Made by a program: the position numbers and the translations under genes. Shown here piece after piece: positions 4,580-60,877 of a stretch of 64,000 nucleotides of DNA. Under the pieces are notes generated by a model. It was not told the DNA's origin. It searched no databases and saw only the letters and a list, made by a program, of their open reading frames with translations. Position 1 is the first letter of the stretch, and each line of letters begins with the position of its first letter. The DNA is from Octopus vulgaris (lineage: Eukaryota), in assembly GCA_951406725.2 (NCBI GenBank), contig OX597816.1:66092001-66156000 (forward strand), in the 5' to 3' direction.

Positions 4580-5085
4580 CAAAGCACCATCCAAACATGG
4601 TCAATGTCAGCCCCCTTGCCCTGACTGGCTCCTGTGCTGGTGGCATGTAAAAAGCACCATCCGAATGTGGTCGATGCCAGCACCGCCTGACTGGCTCCTG
4701 TGCCAGTGGCATGTAAAATACACCATCCGAACATGGTCAATGCCAGCCCCCTTGCCTCGACTGGCTCCTGTGCCTATGGCATGTAAAAAGCACCATCTGA
4801 ATGTGGTCGATGCCAGCAATGCCTGACCAGCTCCTGTGCCAGTGGCACATAAAATGCACCATCCGAACATGGTCGATGCCAGCCCCCTTGCCTCGACTGG
4901 CTCCTGTGCCTGTCGCATGTAAATAGCACTCACTACACTCTTGGAGTGGTTGATGTTAGGAAGGGCATCCAGCTGTAAAAAAACATTGCCAGATCAGATT
5001 AGAGCCTGGTGCAGCCTCCTGGCTTGTCAAACCCCAGTCCAACCCATGCCAGCATAGAAAACAGATATTAAATGATGATGATGAG
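4580..5085 (+). mobile_element. SINE-like family 3 ((GAT)n tail) with internal 70/66-bp tandem array
   Basis: CACCATC units at 4585, 4655, 4721, 4791, 4857; then GTTAGGAAGGGCATCCAGC core, CCATGCCAGCAT and a GAT tail. Confidence 0.8.
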
Positions 5086-7292: not shown

Positions 7293-7676
7293 TAGGCACA
7301 GGAGTGGCTGTGTGGTAAGTAGCTTGCTTACCAACATGGTTCCGGGTTCATTCCCACTGCGTGGCACCTTGGGCAAGTGTCTTCTACTATAGCCTCGGGC
7401 TGACCAAAGTGGATTTGGTTGATGGAAACTGAAAGAAGCCCGTCATATATATGTATGTATATATATATATGTATGTGTGTGTGTGTGTTTGTCACCCCAA
7501 CATCGCTTGACAACCGATGCTGGTGTGTTTACGTCCCTGTAACTTAACAGTTCAGCAAAAGAGACCGATAGAATAAGTATTAGGCTTACAAAGAATAAGT
7601 CCTGGGGTCGATTTGCTCGACTAAAGGCGGTGCTCCAGCATGGCCACAGTCAAATGACTGAAACAAGTAAAAGAGT
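7293..7676 (+). mobile_element. SINE family 1 (tRNA-derived, octopus OK/OR-type)
   Basis: A-box-like TGGCTGTGTGG, B-box-like GGGTTCATTCCC, GGCACCTTGGGCAAGTG, internal (TA)(TG), AGTAAAAG tail; more than 10 copies in the window. Confidence 0.9.
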
Positions 7677-7699
7677 ATATATGAAGTGTAATGTTACAT

Positions 7700-8108
7700 G
7701 TGTAGGAGTGACTGTGTGGTTAGTAGCTTGCTTACCAACCACATGGTTCCGGGTTCAGTCCCACTGCATGGCACCTTGGGCAAGTGTCTTCTACTATTGC
7801 CTCAGGCCAACCAAAGCCTTGTGAGTGGATTTGGTAGACGGAAACTGAAAGAAGCCCATCATATATGTATGTGTGTGTGTGTGTGTGTATATGTTTGTGT
7901 GTCTGTATTTGTTCCCCCCGCCCAACATTGCTTGACAACTGATGGTGATGTGTTTACGTATCCATAACTTAGTGGTTCAGCAAAAGCGACCGATAGAATA
8001 AGTACTAGGCTTACAAAGAATAAGCCCTGGGACCGATTTGCTCAACTAAAGGTGGTGCTCCAGCATGGCCACAGTCAAATGACTGAAACAAATAAAAGAG
8101 TAAAAGAG
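7700..8108 (+). mobile_element. SINE family 1, second copy in tandem
   Basis: Same structure as 7293-7676. Confidence 0.9.
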
Positions 8109-32790: not shown

Positions 32791-33006
32791 TATCCTTTCT
32801 ACTGAAGGCACAAGGCCTGAAATTATGGGGGAGAGGACTAATCAATTACATTGAACCCAGTATTTCACTGGTACTTATTTTATCAACCCCAAAAGGATGA
32901 CAGGCGAAGTCGACCTCAGTGGAATTTGAACTCAGAACATAAGGACAGATGAAATGCTGATAAGCATTTTGCCTGGCATGCTAGCAAATCTGCCAGCTCA
33001 CCTCCT
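32585..33006 (-). mobile_element. Two SINE family 2 copies separated by (AAT)n
   Basis: Copies at 32585-32713 and 32790-33006. Confidence 0.8.
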
Positions 33007-33067
33007 TAATAATAATGATGATGATGACGATGATGATATGTATGTATACATATAAATATATATATAT

Positions 33068-34163
33068 ACATAAGGGACTAAAGCCATCTGAATATGGCTA
33101 GGGACAGGGCAGGGTGGTGGGGGTGTTACTGTTGCATTTAGCCCCAGGCGAACATCGACGTCGCCAGATAGGCTTGACACCATCACGGTGTCCTTTAACC
33201 TGCAAAGGGAGATAATTCCCCGATGAAGCGGAAACCACACACGGACCATGGTTTCAAGGTGTATTGCCTATCATCAATGTGTGGTAGGCCCCCGCTTCCT
33301 CGACGAAATCTCACTCTGCAGGATATTCATATATAGATTTTCAAGCAAAATACATTTGCTGATTTCGAAAATCTGTTCGACAGCAATAATAATTCTCTAA
33401 ATGAGATATAGACAGTAACTGCTCCATAACATAAGGGACTAAAGCCATCTGAATATGGCTAGGGACAGGGCAGGGTGGTGGGGGTGTTACTGTTGCATTT
33501 AGCCCCAGGCGAACATCGACGTCGCCAGATAGGCTTGACACCACACATTGATGATAGGCAATACACCTTGAAACCATGGTCCGTGTGTGGTTTCCGCTTC
33601 ATCGGGGAATTATCTCCCTTTGCAGGTTAAAGGACACCGTGATGGTGTCAAGCCTATCTGGCGACGTCGATGTTCGCCTGGGGCTAAATGCAACAGTAAC
33701 ACCCCCACCACCCTGCCCTGTCCCTAGCCATATTCAGATGGCTTTAGTCCCTTATGTTATGGAGCAGTTACTGTCTATATCTCATTTAGAGAATTATTAT
33801 TGCTGTCGAACAGATTTTCGAAATCAGCAAATGTATTTTGCTTGAAAATCTATATATGAATATCCTGCAGAGTGAGATTTCGTCGAGGAAGCGGGGGCCT
33901 ACCACACGTTGATGATAGGCAATACACCTTGAAACCATGGTCCGTGTGTGGTTTCCGCTTCATCGGGGAATTATCTCCCTTTGCAGGTTAAAGGACACCG
34001 TGATGGTGTCAAGCCTATCTGGCGACGTCGATGTTCGCCTGGGGCTAAATGCAACAGTAACACCCCCACCACCCTGCCCTGTCCCTAGCCATATTCAGAT
34101 GGCTTTAGTCCCTTATGTTATGGAGCAGTTACTGTCTATATCTCATTTAGAGAATTATTATTG

Positions 34164-34165
<2 letters not shown>
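33068..34165. mobile_element. Inverted plus tandem array of a 361-bp HHR monomer (retrozyme- or pLTR-like, family E)
   Basis: Plus arm 33541-34165 has period 361 (ORFs at 33576 and 33937 share the same start); minus arm 33068-33542; (TA)n on both sides. Confidence 0.92.
33903..33948 (+). ncRNA. Type I hammerhead, U3 variant (further copies at 33542-33587 plus and 33238-33283 minus)
   Basis: CACACG-TTGATGA-TAGG caataca CCTT-GAAA-CCATGG-TC-CGTGTG. Confidence 0.75.
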
Positions 34166-34221
<56 letters not shown>

Positions 34222-34225
<4 letters not shown>

Positions 34226-34560
34226 TAACAGAATGAGATAAAAATCCAAGGCTGTGAAAGATTTCAGAACATTTATAAAGAGAAAGTCTTACAGCTGTTT
34301 CCAGGATATTTTATGTATCCCTTCATTGGAGATGGCGTGAGAAAATGGTTAAGCAATAGTTATTCTAGATAAGATATGAAATAAAGAGTGAAGTGGAGGA
34401 ATGAAAATAGACGTGAGATATGCAGGGATATTGTATCTACAGTTCCATTATTTAGGCAGAATGGTATACATATAAGATTCCTGTACCTTGTGTGTATTTA
34501 AAATTGGTCATTCCAAGCATAGAGTTTGTAAACGGTGTTATTGAATTGTTTTATACATAT
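34222..34560 (-). mobile_element. PLE-type 3' fragment with decayed HHR (family F)
   Basis: Minus strand TCT-CCAATGA-A-GGGATA..TATCCT-G-GAAA-CAGCTG-TA-AGA at about 34287-34333; second copy at 60770-60877. Confidence 0.6.
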
Positions 34561-34561
34561 G

Positions 34562-34637
34562 AGCGGTTTAGCTTAATTGGTTCAGTGCACCGCGACGCAT
34601 AATCACGGAGGTGTGAGTTCGAGTCTCATAGCCGGCC
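34562..34637 (+). pseudogene. tRNA-Met(CAT)-like sequence (pseudo-tRNA or SINE head)
   Basis: TAGCTTAATTGG A box, anticodon arm CCGCGA-CGCATAA-TCACGG, GTGAGTTCGAGTCTCAT T arm; poor acceptor stem; T-run downstream. Confidence 0.6.
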
Positions 34638-34780
34638 GCCAACACTTTTTTCTGCAAAATAGGGGTAGCTTATCCTGTCCAGGCTATATGATTAGCATTA
34701 TCCTGCATTTGAGAATTTAAAATCACTTCTTTAACTTTCTAAGACATCTCAACACTTCTAAAGCAAACTTCTTTTATCTA

Positions 34781-34814
<34 letters not shown>

Positions 34815-34818
<4 letters not shown>

Positions 34819-35020
34819 CAATATTTTATAATTACAAATATAATTATAATTAGGGTTCAGCAAAGATTTGCTTTACCACATACTGAACCTTAGCTATTTC
34901 TTCTACTATAAGAAGAGACTCCCGGACAAAAACAAAATGGTTCTTTTTCATGCCGAATTCTACTTGGTGAAATTATTGATTACTAGTTAATTAATTAATT
35001 TTACCCTTTATTATTATTGA
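34815..35020 (+). mobile_element. PLE-type 3' tail between (TA)n tracts
   Basis: Ends ACTTGGTGAAATTA..TAATTTTACCCTTTATT, like the tails of families D, H and I. Confidence 0.5.
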
Positions 35021-35042
35021 TATATGTATATATATATATAAC

Positions 35043-36128
35043 AACTGGAAAAGATACCTCGATGACTGTTTCATCATCTGGGACAAAGGCATAGAGAAAC
35101 TTGAGGAACTTAAAATTCTATTAAATGGAATAAATGACAATATACAATTCACGATGGACCACAACGAAAAAGAATTACCATTTTTAGACATCCTCATTAA
35201 GAAAACCGGCAACAAAATAGAGACAGATATCTACTATAAACCGACAGACTCTAAACAGTACCTACCCTTTGATTCATTCCACCCACGACACACTAGAATG
35301 AATGTCCCTTTTTGTTTAGCTAGAAGGATTTGCACCATAATATCAGACACAAACACCCGACACACACGTCTCCAGGAACTTAGAACCACACTCACAAATA
35401 GAAACTATCCACAGCCCCTAATAGACAGTGCAATCCAACGGGTACTTAAATTAAGTATAGAAGACCTGAGACAAACAAAACCAAAAAAGAAAGAACAATT
35501 AAAAACCCTTCCCTACATCTCTACACACAACCCACTCAACAATGAGGCCTTCAACACCATACTACAAAGCACAGCCCTACTAAAGGGAGACCCAAAGATG
35601 AACCGGATCCTCGAAACACACACCATCATTAAAAGTAAACGGCAACCAAAATCCTTGAAAAGGATTTTAACCCAAGCTACACTGCACTCAACATCAACCA
35701 CAAAACCAGCAGTTAGAAAATGTGGAAGGCCCAACTGCGGAATCTGTGTCATCTTGAAAGAAGGATCAGAATTTATACTGGAACAAGGCCACCAGTTCAC
35801 CATTAGAACAAACTTCACCTGCGCATCAGAAAACTTAATTTACATCATAACATGCGCAGGCTGCAATAGGCAGTATATAGGCCATACAAAAAATAGCTTA
35901 CGTAATAGGATGGCGGTGCATAAATCACAAATTAGAAACCCTGATTACCGCAAAATACCGGTCAGCGGACACATAGATAGATGTGCTGGAAATGTAAATC
36001 CGAAATTTACAACTAACCCACTCTATAAATTCAGTGACAACGCAACCTTCACACAACGCCAAAATAAAGAACTATATTTCATAAAAAAATTTAGACCAAG
36101 TTTAAACACCCTGGGCCAGGAATACTAA
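35043..36128 (+). CDS. PLE reverse transcriptase (C-terminal half) + GIY-YIG endonuclease, uninterrupted partial ORF
   Basis: NWKRYLDDCFIIW, LPFLD, YYKPT..YLPFDSFHP, CGRPNCGIC, CASENLIYIITC..C..QYIGHT..R...H..H; the frame is open upstream of the ORF-track ATG at 35154. Confidence 0.93.
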   Translation, partial: NWKRYLDDCFIIWDKGIEKLEELKILLNGINDNIQFTMDHNEKELPFLDILIKKTGNKIETDIYYKPTDSKQYLPFDSFHPRHTRMNVPFCLARRICTIISDTNTRHTRLQELRTTLTNRNYPQPLIDSAIQRVLKLSIEDLRQTKPKKKEQLKTLPYISTHNPLNNEAFNTILQSTALLKGDPKMNRILETHTIIKSKRQPKSLKRILTQATLHSTSTTKPAVRKCGRPNCGICVILKEGSEFILEQGHQFTIRTNFTCASENLIYIITCAGCNRQYIGHTKNSLRNRMAVHKSQIRNPDYRKIPVSGHIDRCAGNVNPKFTTNPLYKFSDNATFTQRQNKELYFIKKFRPSLNTLGQEY

Positions 36129-36294
36129 AACAAAAGATAAGTCCTCCGAAAAGGAGAACCAAATTTCACCACGGCCACTACTTCAAACAGACACTCACTC
36201 TGACGGAAATATGCCTTAGTAAAAAAGGAAAAATTCTTTCATACAAATCTGACCCTGATACATACGATACAGCTAAGGGTCAGACCCGATTCTG

Positions 36295-36690
36295 ATTGGT
36301 CAACAAGTTGATGACGTCTAGCTCTGCTAGAATGGACAGGATACAAACAGGGGACAGTCATTAGTCAGAATATTGATGACGTCCTTTTCTGCTTGAATAG
36401 TCACCTAACAAGTACAGACAGGGGGCAGATCTAATGTAGCTATAAGTCGTGATTGGGCAGAATCTGGATGACGTCCCGCTATGCTTGACTAACGAAGCGA
36501 CTGGTCAAGACAGGAAACAAACAAGAGGGAGTTATAATGCAGCAATTGGTCAAAATAATGATGACGTCCCGTTCCACTTGATTAAAGCCACCTAACGAAA
36601 CGATTGGTCAAAACATTGATGACGTCACGCTACGCTAGATTGACCACCTAACAGGCATTATAAAACTGAGCATTTCACAAAAACTCACTA
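36295..36690 (+). promoter_or_regulatory. Putative Pol II promoter in the PLE 3' region: 5x (ATTGG-N12-TGACGTC), TATA box, Inr
   Basis: Modules at 36295, 36360 (ATTAG), 36452, 36545, 36603; TATAAAA at 36659-65; CTCACT at 36684-89. Confidence 0.7.
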
Positions 36691-37004
36691 GAACCACCCA
36701 GCGAACTTCCACCATGGGTCATCACAATTGCTTAAGGTAAAAATGAATTCCTCGCTCTTTCGGAAACATCAATCTTCTGTATTGACCGCTTTCCACCACT
36801 TTGATCTGTTTTTTGTATTGAATACGTAACGCCACCGTGGGCCACTGCATCAAACACTTTGAACATATACTTCAAACTATATATCAACTATACATGAACT
36901 ATATATCAACTATACATGAACTCTAAGATGTCTGACTCCGTTGTGTATTATAAATGAATTTCTTGTGTTTGACGGCATGAGCTGTCTCTTTTTATATATA
37001 ACTT

Positions 37005-37045
37005 TTTTTGATAAGGTTCATTTCAGGAACTGAAACATGTTATAA
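37005..37045 (+). ncRNA. Decayed hammerhead of the PLE pLTR
   Basis: TTGATAA-GGTTC atttcag GAACT-GAAA-CATG-TT. Confidence 0.5.
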
Positions 37046-37103
37046 TGTATATATAAAAATTTAAAATTGTATAATACAGCAGCATTTTCGAACTTCATTT
37101 TTT

Positions 37104-37147
<44 letters not shown>

Positions 37148-37627
37148 TTGTGTTTTGAGTTGTATTTTCATGTTTGTATCACCAAACCTATTTACTCTGT
37201 AGTAACAATTTACATAGGAAGTTTTGTCATCATCAACACAAGTAAAGATTGATTTAAAACTTCTGAAACAATAACAACAACAACAGCAATCCATCCAAAC
37301 ACAATTCCTTTTCAAATAAAGATGCGATCATATGTTCCCAAATCAGTGAGATGGTTAACATTTTATGGTAAACGTTTTATTTCCAACATTTTCTATTTAG
37401 TCTACTCCAGTATACTAACAAAGACTTTTTCTCCTTCTTTGCATCTAATTTATTTTTCTCTTATTTATTCGTTATAGTCGTGGAAGAGAGAAAGGGGCCA
37501 TTAAACTTCAACATGGGTAAAGGGATCATCTATTTCTTAAATCAAATCTCACTTACTTACTTGTTCTTACACTATCTTCTATCAATGCTGTGGTACCACA
37601 CTCAGTTTGGCTTTGATTTTAATCTTT

Positions 37628-37998: not shown

Positions 37999-38311
37999 TG
38001 CCCTGTCATTAAAGAAGCCCCATTGTCTTAAGTCATTTACTATAACACTATACTGTAATATTATTTCCACAAAATACTACTTTGTTACTATCATATTTTA
38101 TCATTTGGTTACTAAAGCATTTTATTATTCCAATAACATTTTATTTGTTCTTTACAGTAGTGCTATGCACCATCATTGCTTAGATTAAATGTTGTTATTT
38201 TAGCATTTTGATTCTGCTTGAACACTTTATTCTGTTCAACTAATTAATTATTTTCATGGATTCCTGGATGAAATATATTAACTTGTGAATTTTTTTTATC
38301 GACTATTCCAG

Positions 38312-38431
38312 AACACAGACGTTACTGAGCAGAAAAGGAGAAGAATTTTGCACCAATACTAGTTCCCTAAATCATTTCAACATGACTAGCATCTCGAAAA
38401 CAATGAAATACATTGATATTGAAAAGAACAG
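38312..38431 (+). CDS. Host gene exon, 120 nt, phase 2->2, unknown product
   Basis: T-tract + TTCCAG acceptor; CAG|GTGAGT donor; open frame TQTLLSRKGEEFCTNTSSLNHFNMTSISKTMKYIDIEKN. Confidence 0.7.
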
Positions 38432-39879: not shown

Positions 39880-40545
39880 AAGTATGCTGTGCGTGAGAAG
39901 ACCCGGCAAGACTAGTGAAGCCATAATCCGTGGCCCCTACCTGGGACGTAGTCAGTCCACCTGTGCATACCTTCCTTCTTGTGACACTTGTGAAGACCTG
40001 TTGAGGCAAGTGAGAATCGAATCGTATCGAATCAAATCGAACCAAATCAAAATAGATGAACATCAATGGAATTTGTATCCTTGTGGTAAATTAGTGCCGG
40101 TGGCACATAAGAAAACCATCCGAACGTGACCGTAGCCAGTACCGCAATGACTGGCCTCCGTGCTGAGGGCACGTAACAAACACCATCCGAGCGTGGCCGT
40201 CCGCCAGCCTCGTCTGGCACCTGTGTCGGTGACACATAAGAAAACACCATCCGAGCGTGGCCGTCTGCCAGCCTCGTCTGGCACCTGTGTCGGTGGCACA
40301 TAAAAAACACCATCCGAGCGTGGCCGTCTGCCAGCCTCGTCTGGCACCTGTGTCGGTGGCACATAAAATCACCCACTACACTCTCGGAGTGGTTGGCGTT
40401 AGGAAGGGCATCCAGCTGTAGAAACACTGCCACATCTGACTGACCTGGTGCAGCCTTCGGGCTTCCCAGACCCCAGTTGAACCGTCCAACCCATGCTAGC
40501 ATGGAAAGCGGACGTTAAACGATGATGATGATGATGATGATGATA
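39880..40545 (+). mobile_element. SINE-like family 3, long CpG-retaining copy with 63-64-bp tandem units
   Basis: Units at 40181, 40245, 40308; core GGCGTTAGGAAGGGCATCCAGC; (GAT)n tail; 5' part similar to 24960-25142. Confidence 0.85.
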
Positions 40546-52688: not shown

Positions 52689-55005
52689 CAGTGATTCCCA
52701 AGGTGGGGCGTACGCCCCACTGGTGGGGCCTGAGAAAATTCAGGTGGGGCGCGGGGCATAGACGTGGGCTGTGAAAATATTTGTACATGACGAGCGGTCA
52801 TCGTGGGCACAACCTTAGATTCCGTCTTTCCTTTGAAGCCTCCACATCGGAAACTCTCGCACCCCAGCGAGACAAAGAAGATCCCGCACTGAGCAATAAA
52901 CTTACTATTCAGATAAGCCAATCAATTGCCTCAATTAGTTTGCCTCAATTAGTCTTTGGAGTTTTTGAAGTTTGGATTCATTCCTGATGAGCATGATGAG
53001 CGTAAACCGTTTTGCTTATTATGTAATCAGACGATGAGCAATGAGTCAATGAAGGCAGGTAGGCTGGAAGCGCACTTAAAGGTAAGACATCCTAATAATT
53101 CTAATTTAGATTTGGAATACTTCAAATCATTGAAAGAAAAATTTAAAAACTGAACAAAACTCACTTCACTATTTCATGCAAAACAAGTGCCTCATACTCG
53201 TGCCCTTGAAGCCAGCTACGAAATCTCCTTGCTTATAGCAAAACATGGAAATAATCACACTATTGGAGAGCAACTGGTTAAACCTGCTATCTCAATATTC
53301 TTAAAGACTGTATTACAAAAAGATGATGGAGATATCAGGACTATGCCACTCAGTAATAACACTGTCTCGAACAGAATAGATGAAATGGGGCAAGATGTTG
53401 AAAGCCAGCTCATTGAGAAATTAAAATTGCGTAAGTTTTCATTACAAATGGACGAATCCACAATCCGGGACAGTGAGGCTCTGTTATTGACTTATGTGAG
53501 GTATATTGACCACGAGGAGTTTCAGGAAGAGATGCTGTTCTGCGAATCGTTTGAAACCACCACAACTGCAAATGATATTTACATCAAAATCAAACATTAT
53601 TTGGATGCAAACAAAATACCAAAGGAAAACTTACTGGCATGTGCGGCAGACGGTGCACCTGCCATGATGGGCAAGAATACGGGATGCTTAAAAATGATGA
53701 AGGATGAAAATCCAAACATGTTGACTGTCCATTGTGTAATACACCGAGAAAACTTGGTTGCCAAGAAATTGTCCCCTGTTCTTAACAAGATTCTTCAAAG
53801 TGTGATCAAGTGTGTCAACAGCATTAAAAGAAATTCTAAATCTGAACGTCTTTTTAAGCAGTTTTGTATAATTCAAAGTGCCGAACATGTTCGATTATTG
53901 CTTCATACAGAAGTAAGATGGCTATCAAGTGGAAACTGCTTAAAGAGGTTCATGGAATTATTTGATCAGATTAACGACTTTCTTAGTGATAAATGTGAAA
54001 TGAAATTGCTGTCAACAACGGATGGAAAAGCATTTGTCAGTTATTTGACAGACATATTTGAGAAACTTGGAAACTTGAATAAACAACTTCAAGGTGCAAA
54101 CATGACACTTATTGATGCAAAAGCAAAGATTTTTGGATTTATTACAGCTCTCGAATTATGGAAAAAGAAATTTTCCAAAAGAAATTTCAGTGAACTTTAC
54201 TGGTTGAGTAAATGTGAATTAACAAATGATGCTGGCATTGTAATTATTGATCATTTAAATATCTTGATAAAGGATTTCAATGACAGATTTTGCGACTTAA
54301 AGGCAATGAATTTTCCTTCTTGGTTAACTCAACCGCTTCTGATTAACGTTTCTGATGCTACAATCCAATACCAAGAAGAGTTATCAGAATTACAACATGA
54401 TGAATCAGTGAAGACTTTGTTTAAATTGAAAGGTACAAAGATGTGGCTATATGACGAGGTTGAAAGAAAATATCCTAAAATTTCTACATCAGCGAGAGAG
54501 CTACTGATTCCTTTCCCTTCGTCTTATTTGGTCGAATGTGGTTTTAGTGCAGTTGATAATTTGCTCGAAGCCAAGAGAAACCGGCTTGAGATTACAAAAT
54601 GTGGCGATTTACGACTGAAATTAACAAAGTTGTCTCCTCAAATTAAAAACTTGTGCTGTATGCATCAGGCACAGGGTTCTCACTAAATTAGTCGAGCTGA
54701 CCGTCAAATAATTGAACTGAAAAAACGTGTTTCTTTATTCTTTATAAATTGACATTTTTTAAAAACATGAGAAATCGTAATAATTTTATCGATTTATTGG
54801 GTGTTATGCACTTTCAGTGCCTGTTGTTTCAATTCTCAAACTATTTTTTTGTATTTTGAATACAATTTTTTAATTTTTGATTTTTTTTCAATTGTAAGTA
54901 GGCCCACATGTACTTGTAAATGTGAGTGGACATGGGAAAAGGTGGGGCGTAAAAACTTTTGCTATGAAAAAGTGGGGCGCCGGGAAAAAAGGTTGGGAAA
55001 CACTG
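52689..55005 (+). mobile_element. hAT transposon, Buster/Charlie group, full length (2317 bp)
   Basis: TIRs CAGTGATTCCCAA / TTGGGAAACACTG; 8-bp TSD TTCTAGAG at 52681-88 and 55006-13; subterminal GTGGGGCG repeats at both ends. Confidence 0.96.
52956..54686 (+). pseudogene. Buster/Charlie (ZBED5/ZBED8/SCAND3-like) transposase with one in-frame TGA and a damaged start
   Basis: BED finger CLLC..HLKVRH; FSLQMDES, ADGAPAM, CVIH, VRWLS, SYLVECGFS, C-terminal QGSH; TGA at 53151-53 in frame. Confidence 0.92.
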
Positions 55006-60731: not shown

Positions 60732-60769
60732 TATGTATAAATATTTATGTGTATATAAGAATTTTTTGC

Positions 60770-60877
60770 ATAATAAGATAAAAAAACCATGGCTGTGTAG
60801 ATATTAGAGCATTTATAGATAGAAGGTCTTACAGCTGTTTCTAGGATATTTATTAATTATATCCCTTCGTTGGAGAT
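60770..60877 (-). mobile_element. Family F fragment with decayed HHR
   Basis: Minus strand TCT-CCAACGA-A-GGGATA..TATCCT-A-GAAA-CAGCTG-TA-AGA. Confidence 0.6.

Follow-up and report, generated by a model that had tools for sequence, protein, structure and literature searches.

A tandem CCAAT/CRE array in the pseudo-LTR of a Neptune-type Penelope-like element of Octopus vulgaris: a candidate upstream promoter region

A truncated Penelope-like element and its neighbours

The window analysed here, a 64-kb stretch of Octopus vulgaris DNA, harbors a copy of a Penelope-like element (PLE), the features of which are collected in Table 1. In O. vulgaris, PLEs occupy 6.83% of the genome, and 31 of their families were active in recent times (PMC13282606). 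The end of the reverse transcriptase (RT) with its YLDD motif, the thumb, and an endonuclease (EN) domain of the GIY-YIG type (Pfam E 2e-7) are found in one frame, which is the RT-GIY-YIG fusion of EN+ PLEs, and relatives carry both PF00078 and PF01541. Residues 228-236 (CGRPNCGIC) form a linker between RT and EN that fits the CX2-5CxxC pattern reported to mark the Neptune and Nematis clades (PMC8557442). The element resembles the EN+ PLEs of the Neptune clade by its C-terminal GIY-YIG domain, this linker, CCHH-type residues, and its microsatellite flanks. It is assigned here as putatively Neptune-type, by a linker that Nematis shares and in a copy that lacks the greater part of the RT core.

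The 5' half of the ORF is absent from the copy. A protein search returned 365 relatives; of the 120 listed, an O. vulgaris protein has the highest identity (182/199 amino acids, 91%). Three of 83 highly conserved columns are changed in the ORF, a number that falls in the range seen for the 46 other proteins of the alignment. Because the frame is open, with so few conserved columns changed and 91% identity to a protein of the same species, the copy appears to be young. Its 3' end abuts an (AT)n tract (37108-37146) and its 5' break at 35040 a (TA)n tract, while neither a second PLE ORF piece nor a second pseudo-LTR (pLTR) was detected in the window by tblastn and blastn. On these grounds, the copy is a solo 5'-truncated insertion (35040-37107). 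The first-pass annotation of this DNA had located a motif array inside a PLE, and the array does sit in the 3' repeat of the element. It had also referred PLE promoters in general to an upstream partial copy, a setting that the tblastn search contradicts here: the partial-tandem arrangement, with a pLTR upstream of the ORF, is not found at this locus. Since no ORF lies downstream, a promoter here could only read through into host DNA.

Table 1. Predicted features of the PLE copy, with positions in the window
Feature	Position	Strand	Remarks
5'-truncated PLE ORF	35040..36128	+	RT end (YLDD), thumb, CxxxxCxxC linker, GIY-YIG endonuclease; 362 open codons
3' UTR / pseudo-LTR (pLTR)	36129..37107	+	boundaries placed from protein homology and microsatellites
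Unit 1 (65 nt)	36295..36359	+	ATTGG 36295; GATGACGTC 36310-36318
Unit 2 (92 nt)	36360..36451	+	ATTAG 36360, CCAAT core broken; GATGACGTC 36375-36383
Unit 3 (93 nt)	36452..36544	+	ATTGG 36452; GATGACGTC 36467-36475
Unit 4 (58 nt)	36545..36602	+	ATTGG 36545; GATGACGTC 36560-36568
Unit 5	36603..36658	+	ATTGG 36603 (-84); perfect TGACGTCA 36620-36627 (-67..-60)
Putative TATA box TATAAAA	36659..36665	+	sequence match only; window has this heptamer 42 times
Initiator-like CTCACT	36684..36689	+	sequence match; predicted +1 = A36687
Predicted first exon, CCACCATGG start context	36709..36736	+	from sequence; ATG 36714 and 23 coding nt to donor
Candidate splice donor AAG|GTAAAA	36737..36742	+	modest score; only GT scoring >1 within 36680-37110
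Minimal hammerhead-like motif, U3-A8 core variant	37008..37046	+	TTGATAA, helix II, GAAAC, GTT; descriptor scan

Three PLE-like pieces cluster within 4 kb. The segment 33068-34165, between TA-rich tracts, is built from one 362-nt unit, present as partial tandem and inverted copies (33068-33429 and 33429-33543 on the plus strand, 33540-34165 on the minus strand) that are 99.7-100% identical, with a hammerhead-like string at ~33549-33580 that received no score in the descriptor scan. In appearance it is a retrozyme or a non-autonomous derivative of a PLE, and a very recent one (compare 10.64898/2026.07.22.740005). The segment 34223-34775, between two (TA)n tracts, harbors a minus-strand hammerhead-like string (~34285-34335) and a tRNA-like stretch (34564-34634; Rfam 25.7 bits, under the 29-bit cut-off), and has an 82% match at 60769-60877; it may derive from a SINE or from the 3' end of a further PLE. 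Further away, an open frame of 510 codons (53154-54686), without a Pfam match at E 0.001, resembles, to judge by eye, a transposase of hAT/SPIN type (ZBED/GTF2IRD2-like) in its C-terminal part. Tandem arrays at 4581-4929, 7300-8102, and 40168-40368, in which units of 63-66 nt and one doublet of 425 nt are repeated, resemble octopus SINE bodies.

Five homologous CCAAT/CRE units in the pseudo-LTR

Five modules, each pairing an ATTGG (once ATTAG) with a TGACGTC after 12 nt, had been described in the pLTR, and a regex scan for ATT[AG]G-N12-TGACGTC bears them out. Its five matches are the starts of units 1 to 5 (Table 1), and a sixth is absent from both strands of the 64-kb window. This composite was never encountered in 30 simulated 64-kb sequences (first-order Markov), and its analytic chance expectation is 0.0055 per window. 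Five of the seven plus-strand TGACGTC of the window lie inside the array. The CRE of unit 5, said to be perfect, is indeed the single TGACGTCA of the window, the other four being seven-of-eight sites. The TGACGTC word is kept throughout, as had been noted, but the invariant element is two bases longer: the 9-mer GATGACGTC is found unchanged in 5/5 units. On the other side of the spacer, the CCAAT box is intact in four of the five units. The NF-Y consensus is a CCAAT flanked by RR upstream and S/R downstream, and the minus-strand reads of these four boxes (TGACCAATCAG, TGCCCAATCAC, TGACCAATTGC, and TGACCAATCGT) all show such flanks; the CTAAT of unit 2 departs from it.

The array is not reported by Tandem Repeats Finder. 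A separate repeat search does detect it and identifies the five modules as homologous tandem duplicates, with periods of 65, 92, 93, and 58 nt. When a matrix was built from the non-motif columns only, leaving out one unit at a time, each left-out unit ranked first among 926 positions of the 3' region. No other position of the window scores as high, the next best staying below 1 bit, which leaves no motif-less sixth unit. The sequence between modules had been described as diverged, and 39% of the non-motif positions do differ; pairwise identity in these columns is nonetheless 61% (134/220), far above the background of 27%. Homology of the units is thereby shown, and it points to one ancestral CCAAT+CRE unit of ~55-60 nt, multiplied to five copies in the active parent lineage. 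As tandem duplicates of one unit, the modules have a single origin and do not count as independent occurrences.

This origin bears directly on the constant spacing, which had been taken as the sign of a cooperative composite. According to that reading, NF-Y and CREB would cooperate at a fixed distance of 12 nt and place the element under the control of cAMP or of cell activity, such as that of neurons. The distance is near a bias reported for human bZIP and CCAAT sites (PMC7793273), and the box of known polarity, ahead of the CRE, is intact in 4/5 units, compared with none for a second box past the CRE. The invariance itself is however uninformative: inherited from one unit, the spacing is shared by all of them. 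The units align in a gap-free block of ~41 nt that reaches well beyond the CRE, with ~3 small indels elsewhere, and the block after the CRE is as gap-free as the spacer. In the spacer, no indel is observed where 0.5-0.65 would be expected, and a rough Poisson estimate gives a probability of 0.52-0.62 for such an absence. Shared ancestry and a low indel rate would therefore suffice to explain the spacing.

Motif positions have changed less than their surroundings. Within the five units of this one element copy, 11/12 columns of the motif cores show no variation, compared with 7/22 outside the motifs (Fisher P 0.001). Departures affect 1/60 motif cells and 26/110 non-motif cells (nominal P 4e-5, for cells that share ancestry and are not independent). 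A motif-blind permutation of columns produced a nine-column invariant run in 8418 of 200000 trials, a marginal result (P 0.042). The CpG of the CRE is retained in 5/5 units, in a window where the CpG observed/expected ratio is 0.36. Since the units were ascertained from non-motif columns alone, the presence of a CRE in all of them is free of selection bias. Six non-motif columns 3' of the CRE are likewise invariant, so that constraint or ancestry extends past the two named sites.

Of note, degenerate GATTGGTCA-like boxes follow the CRE in four units (36331, 36396, 36500, and 36639), none with an intact ATTGG; the one at 36500, in unit 3, is an ACTGG near-match without a CRE behind it. Those at 36331, 36396, and 36639 lie 36 nt after the first box and 12 nt past the CRE, and overlap the invariant downstream columns. 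These boxes share a CTWGAHT pattern that is invariant at several columns. It is possible that they are an older sub-repeat or decayed CCAAT boxes, or else the site of a third factor.

An excess of kept motif positions is thus observed, and selection on these sites in the parent element is its suggested cause. The units have diverged by 39% in a copy that is itself young; divergence and motif retention would thus have arisen in the active parent lineage. A neutral or partly homogenised minisatellite, produced by slippage or RT template switching, in which motif conservation would be picked out after the fact, is a very unlikely alternative. It would account for the duplicated nature of the units, for the invariance of other columns (22/39), and for the motif-blind P of just 0.042, and ~30-nt repeats without such motifs do exist in the 3' UTR of another PLE (see below). 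It sits poorly, on the other hand, with the identity of the two best-kept blocks, which are two textbook promoter motifs, including a CpG in a CpG-poor genome, with the presence of the motifs in all units detected without them, and with the end of the array at -60 from a TATA/initiator pair.

The repeats would also lie within the 3' UTR of the element transcript, where the PLE protein could bind them as sites or as hairpins. Such action at the RNA level is extremely improbable. In 4/5 units, GTCA and TGAC can pair into a 4-bp hairpin, but its consensus energy is just -2 kcal/mol and compensatory changes are seen in 0/4 pairs. The whole array folds like its shuffled versions (z -0.50; 28/100 shuffles fold equally well). 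The RNA-structure reading was rejected on the grounds of this weak hairpin energy, the lack of covariation, and the shuffle-like fold.

Downstream anatomy and the promoter reading

The array is followed by a TATAAAA and an initiator-like CTCACT, which had been placed ~28 nt apart. Both are present as described, the A of TCACT lying at +28 from TATAAAA, inside the usual TATA/initiator distance of about 28-31 nt. In such AT-rich DNA this pair alone is weak evidence, since 4 of the 42 TATAAAA of the window have a TCABT at +27 to +32. Relative to the presumed +1, the last CCAAT occupies -84 to -80 and the last CRE -67 to -60. CCAAT boxes are usually found between -60 and -100 (PMC4889920), a range that includes the last box of the array.

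A leader of 27 nt would separate the predicted +1 from the start context CCACCATGG, which occurs once on the plus strand of the window. Splice sites were scored with rough purpose-built matrices of base frequencies. The donor at 36737 is equalled or exceeded by 135 of the 3508 plus-strand GT of the window, and no acceptor scoring >2.5 is found inside the pLTR. None of 120 longer relatives shows the predicted first-exon peptide at its N-terminus, a weak test given their scattered starts and apparently unspliced gene calls. An 11/22-nt tandem repeat (36866-36922) lies in that part of the pLTR which is predicted to be intron. The core, helix II, and GAAAC..GTT of the hammerhead-like motif fit the U3-A8 minimal variant described for PLEs (PMC4209133), with a weak helix I and a fold z of -0.07. 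A search of 33000-37300 against Rfam gave no hammerhead and no significant match, the best of the 14 matches listed being a tRNA-like stretch (E 0.034).

Taken as a whole, the array is probably the upstream activating part of a Pol II promoter carried by the pLTR of a Neptune-type PLE family. The five units, with their NF-Y and bZIP (CREB/ATF-type) sites, would have been maintained by selection while their flanks drifted. NF-Y and a bZIP dimer would bind each unit, open the chromatin, and feed a TATA/initiator start near 36687. Where copies are inserted in tandem, transcription would pass the short ATG exon, splicing would remove the remainder of the pLTR together with the hammerhead-like motif, and the transcript would continue into the next copy's ORF, as can be extrapolated from Penelope and Chlamys-3. 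The present solo truncated copy would be a passenger, its promoter reading only into host DNA.

The likely role of such a promoter would be strong transcription, either broadly active or in the germline and early embryo, rather than a neuronal cAMP switch. Heritable transposition favours germline expression, and the germline role is preferred here because activity elsewhere is not passed on to offspring. The GA that precedes TGACGTC in all units suits ATF2/ATF7 or CREB3/XBP1 at least as well as CREB1, and thereby argues against the inducible enhancer introduced above. The five CRE-type sites ahead of a TATA box speak in its favour. However, CREB is reported to occupy thousands of promoters constitutively, most of them not induced by cAMP, with the TATA box being weakly predictive (PMC3671974), so that a CRE motif does not imply inducibility. 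The Drosophila Penelope promoter, furthermore, is ovary-biased (PMC2377424). An inducible, NF-Y/CREB-driven element, which would have the same promoter anatomy with a required spacing and inducibility on top, is therefore unlikely.

The same sites could also serve a platform for a repressor released by stress, in which ATF2/ATF7-type factors would silence the element via its CREs until p38 releases them, NF-Y keeping the element poised. ATF-2 family members are reported to bind TGACGTCA and nucleate heterochromatin, from which p38 phosphorylation releases them, and a role in the stress activation of transposable elements has been proposed (PMC3444692). This behaviour on TGACGTCA and the invariance of GATGACGTC across the units agree with such a platform, which is still quite unlikely: five retained sites are easier to read as activating, since a selfish element would presumably gain little by multiplying silencer sites.

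It is very improbable that the PLE family acts as a portable signal-gated promoter, with an NF-Y/CRE array responding to cAMP or stress kinases, the truncated copies of which, dispersed in the octopus genome, would capture host exons by means of the ATG exon and donor of the pLTR and yield activity-dependent neuronal chimeric transcripts. A candidate exon (38312-38431), an open stretch ending in AG|GTGAGT, has a donor among the two best of the 3508 plus-strand GT. The donor at 36737 would be in frame with it, which is a one-in-three event, and a stronger acceptor at 38158 precedes it. Its 40-residue translation has no homolog, and Pfam gave no match above cut-off for ten peptides (9 of 12 candidate exons and one long ORF). 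On these searches, no host gene is established in the window. If the array were inducible and truncated copies donated it to host exons, this would bear on transposon activity in cephalopod brains.

Relation to known promoters and significance

The preferred reading, an upstream activating region in a pLTR, has several counterparts among PLEs. In D. virilis, Penelope starts in the pLTR, and reporter dissection revealed an ovary-biased promoter (PMC2377424). Unlike the predicted octopus promoter, Drosophila Penelope uses a TATA-less internal promoter with a DPE-like motif. The pLTR of Pen2a from Adineta vaga is closer: it is described as having a putative TATA, a TCACT initiator, and the first ORF codons inside the pLTR (PMC3846280), the initiator being the same as here. 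In Chlamys-3_cRei, of which the start has been mapped, an intron spans the pLTR/body boundary (PMC8557442), and in Anolis Poseidon the promoter is presumed to be in the pLTR (PMC11167929). The predicted start in the pLTR, the candidate donor nearby, and the putative hammerhead-like motif of the octopus element would correspond to those of Penelope, Pen2a, and Chlamys-3_cRei. These elements differ from it in that an upstream NF-Y/bZIP repeat array is not described in the available parts of these accounts, and in that the octopus copy is solo and 5'-truncated.

The pairing of sites has its own precedent. In human cells, a TRE or E-box is reported to lie preferentially 10-12 bp 5' of CCAAT, and ATF2/ATF3 are biased too (PMC7793273). 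In the octopus array, read on the minus strand, the CRE is likewise 5' of CCAAT with a 12-nt gap, although the distance measures may differ. The human sites also include a retroelement context, with LTR/HERV sites (PMC7793273; PMC4889920). They involve FOS, USF, MITF, and ATF2/3, with one pair per site instead of five tandem units. In the available parts of three further sources (PMC3464117, PMC5223348, 10.1101/2024.05.28.596138), a CCAAT-CRE distance was not found.

Among relatives, a contig scan with a 47-sequence alignment yielded one locus with DNA from 28 candidates (L001, 40% amino-acid identity). Its contig, 2 kb long, comes from the assembly of a bacterial symbiont and is probably host DNA contamination. 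The 3' region of L001 (1662-1930) harbors ~30-nt tandem repeats, two TAACGTCA that form a CRE-like doublet (1801-1825) directly before a TATATA, and a CTGAAGA-type hammerhead motif. Neither ATTGG nor CCAAT occurs in this 3' region; the clade as a whole therefore does not share the composite. The supplement of PMC8557442, which holds Naiad, Chlamys, and Hydra consensus sequences and not Neptune ones, gave 1 match to GATGACGTC, 7 to TGACGTCA, 8 to ATTGGTCA, and 5 to TGACCAAT. The composite is absent at the match sites displayed from it, where motifs broken by line ends would escape. In one consensus of its Naiad file, two ATGACGTCAT precede a TATA-like run. On these two anecdotes, CRE-like repeats may recur in PLE 3' regions; among the 3' regions compared, the pairing of NF-Y with the CRE is confined to the octopus element.

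Multiplied factor sites upstream of a TATA box are also a theme of retroviral U3 enhancers, reportedly as the 21-bp CRE repeats of HTLV-1, the CCAAT repeats of ERV9/LTR12, and the direct repeats of MLV. The likeness is that of factor-site units multiplied in the terminal repeat of a retroelement. Those are true LTRs of vertebrate retroviruses, in contrast to the pseudo-LTR of a non-viral PLE, and no sequence kinship is claimed.

No published description of an NF-Y/CRE array in a PLE was found in a survey of mostly open literature, with Repbase/Dfam and preprint supplements outside its scope. The fivefold array in a PLE pLTR thus appears to be new, while each of its ingredients is already known. 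In the sources at hand, PLE promoters are described for few elements, by reporter dissection in Penelope, a mapped start in Chlamys-3, and putative motifs in Adineta. The present sequence offers a complete, directly testable candidate promoter of a mollusc Neptune-type element, and its five units represent a natural mutagenesis by which GATGACGTC and ATTGG are indicated as functional. The NF-Y pairing and the CRE array in this pLTR suggest that an LTR-like, multimerised upstream region can arise in a pseudo-LTR from host factor sites.
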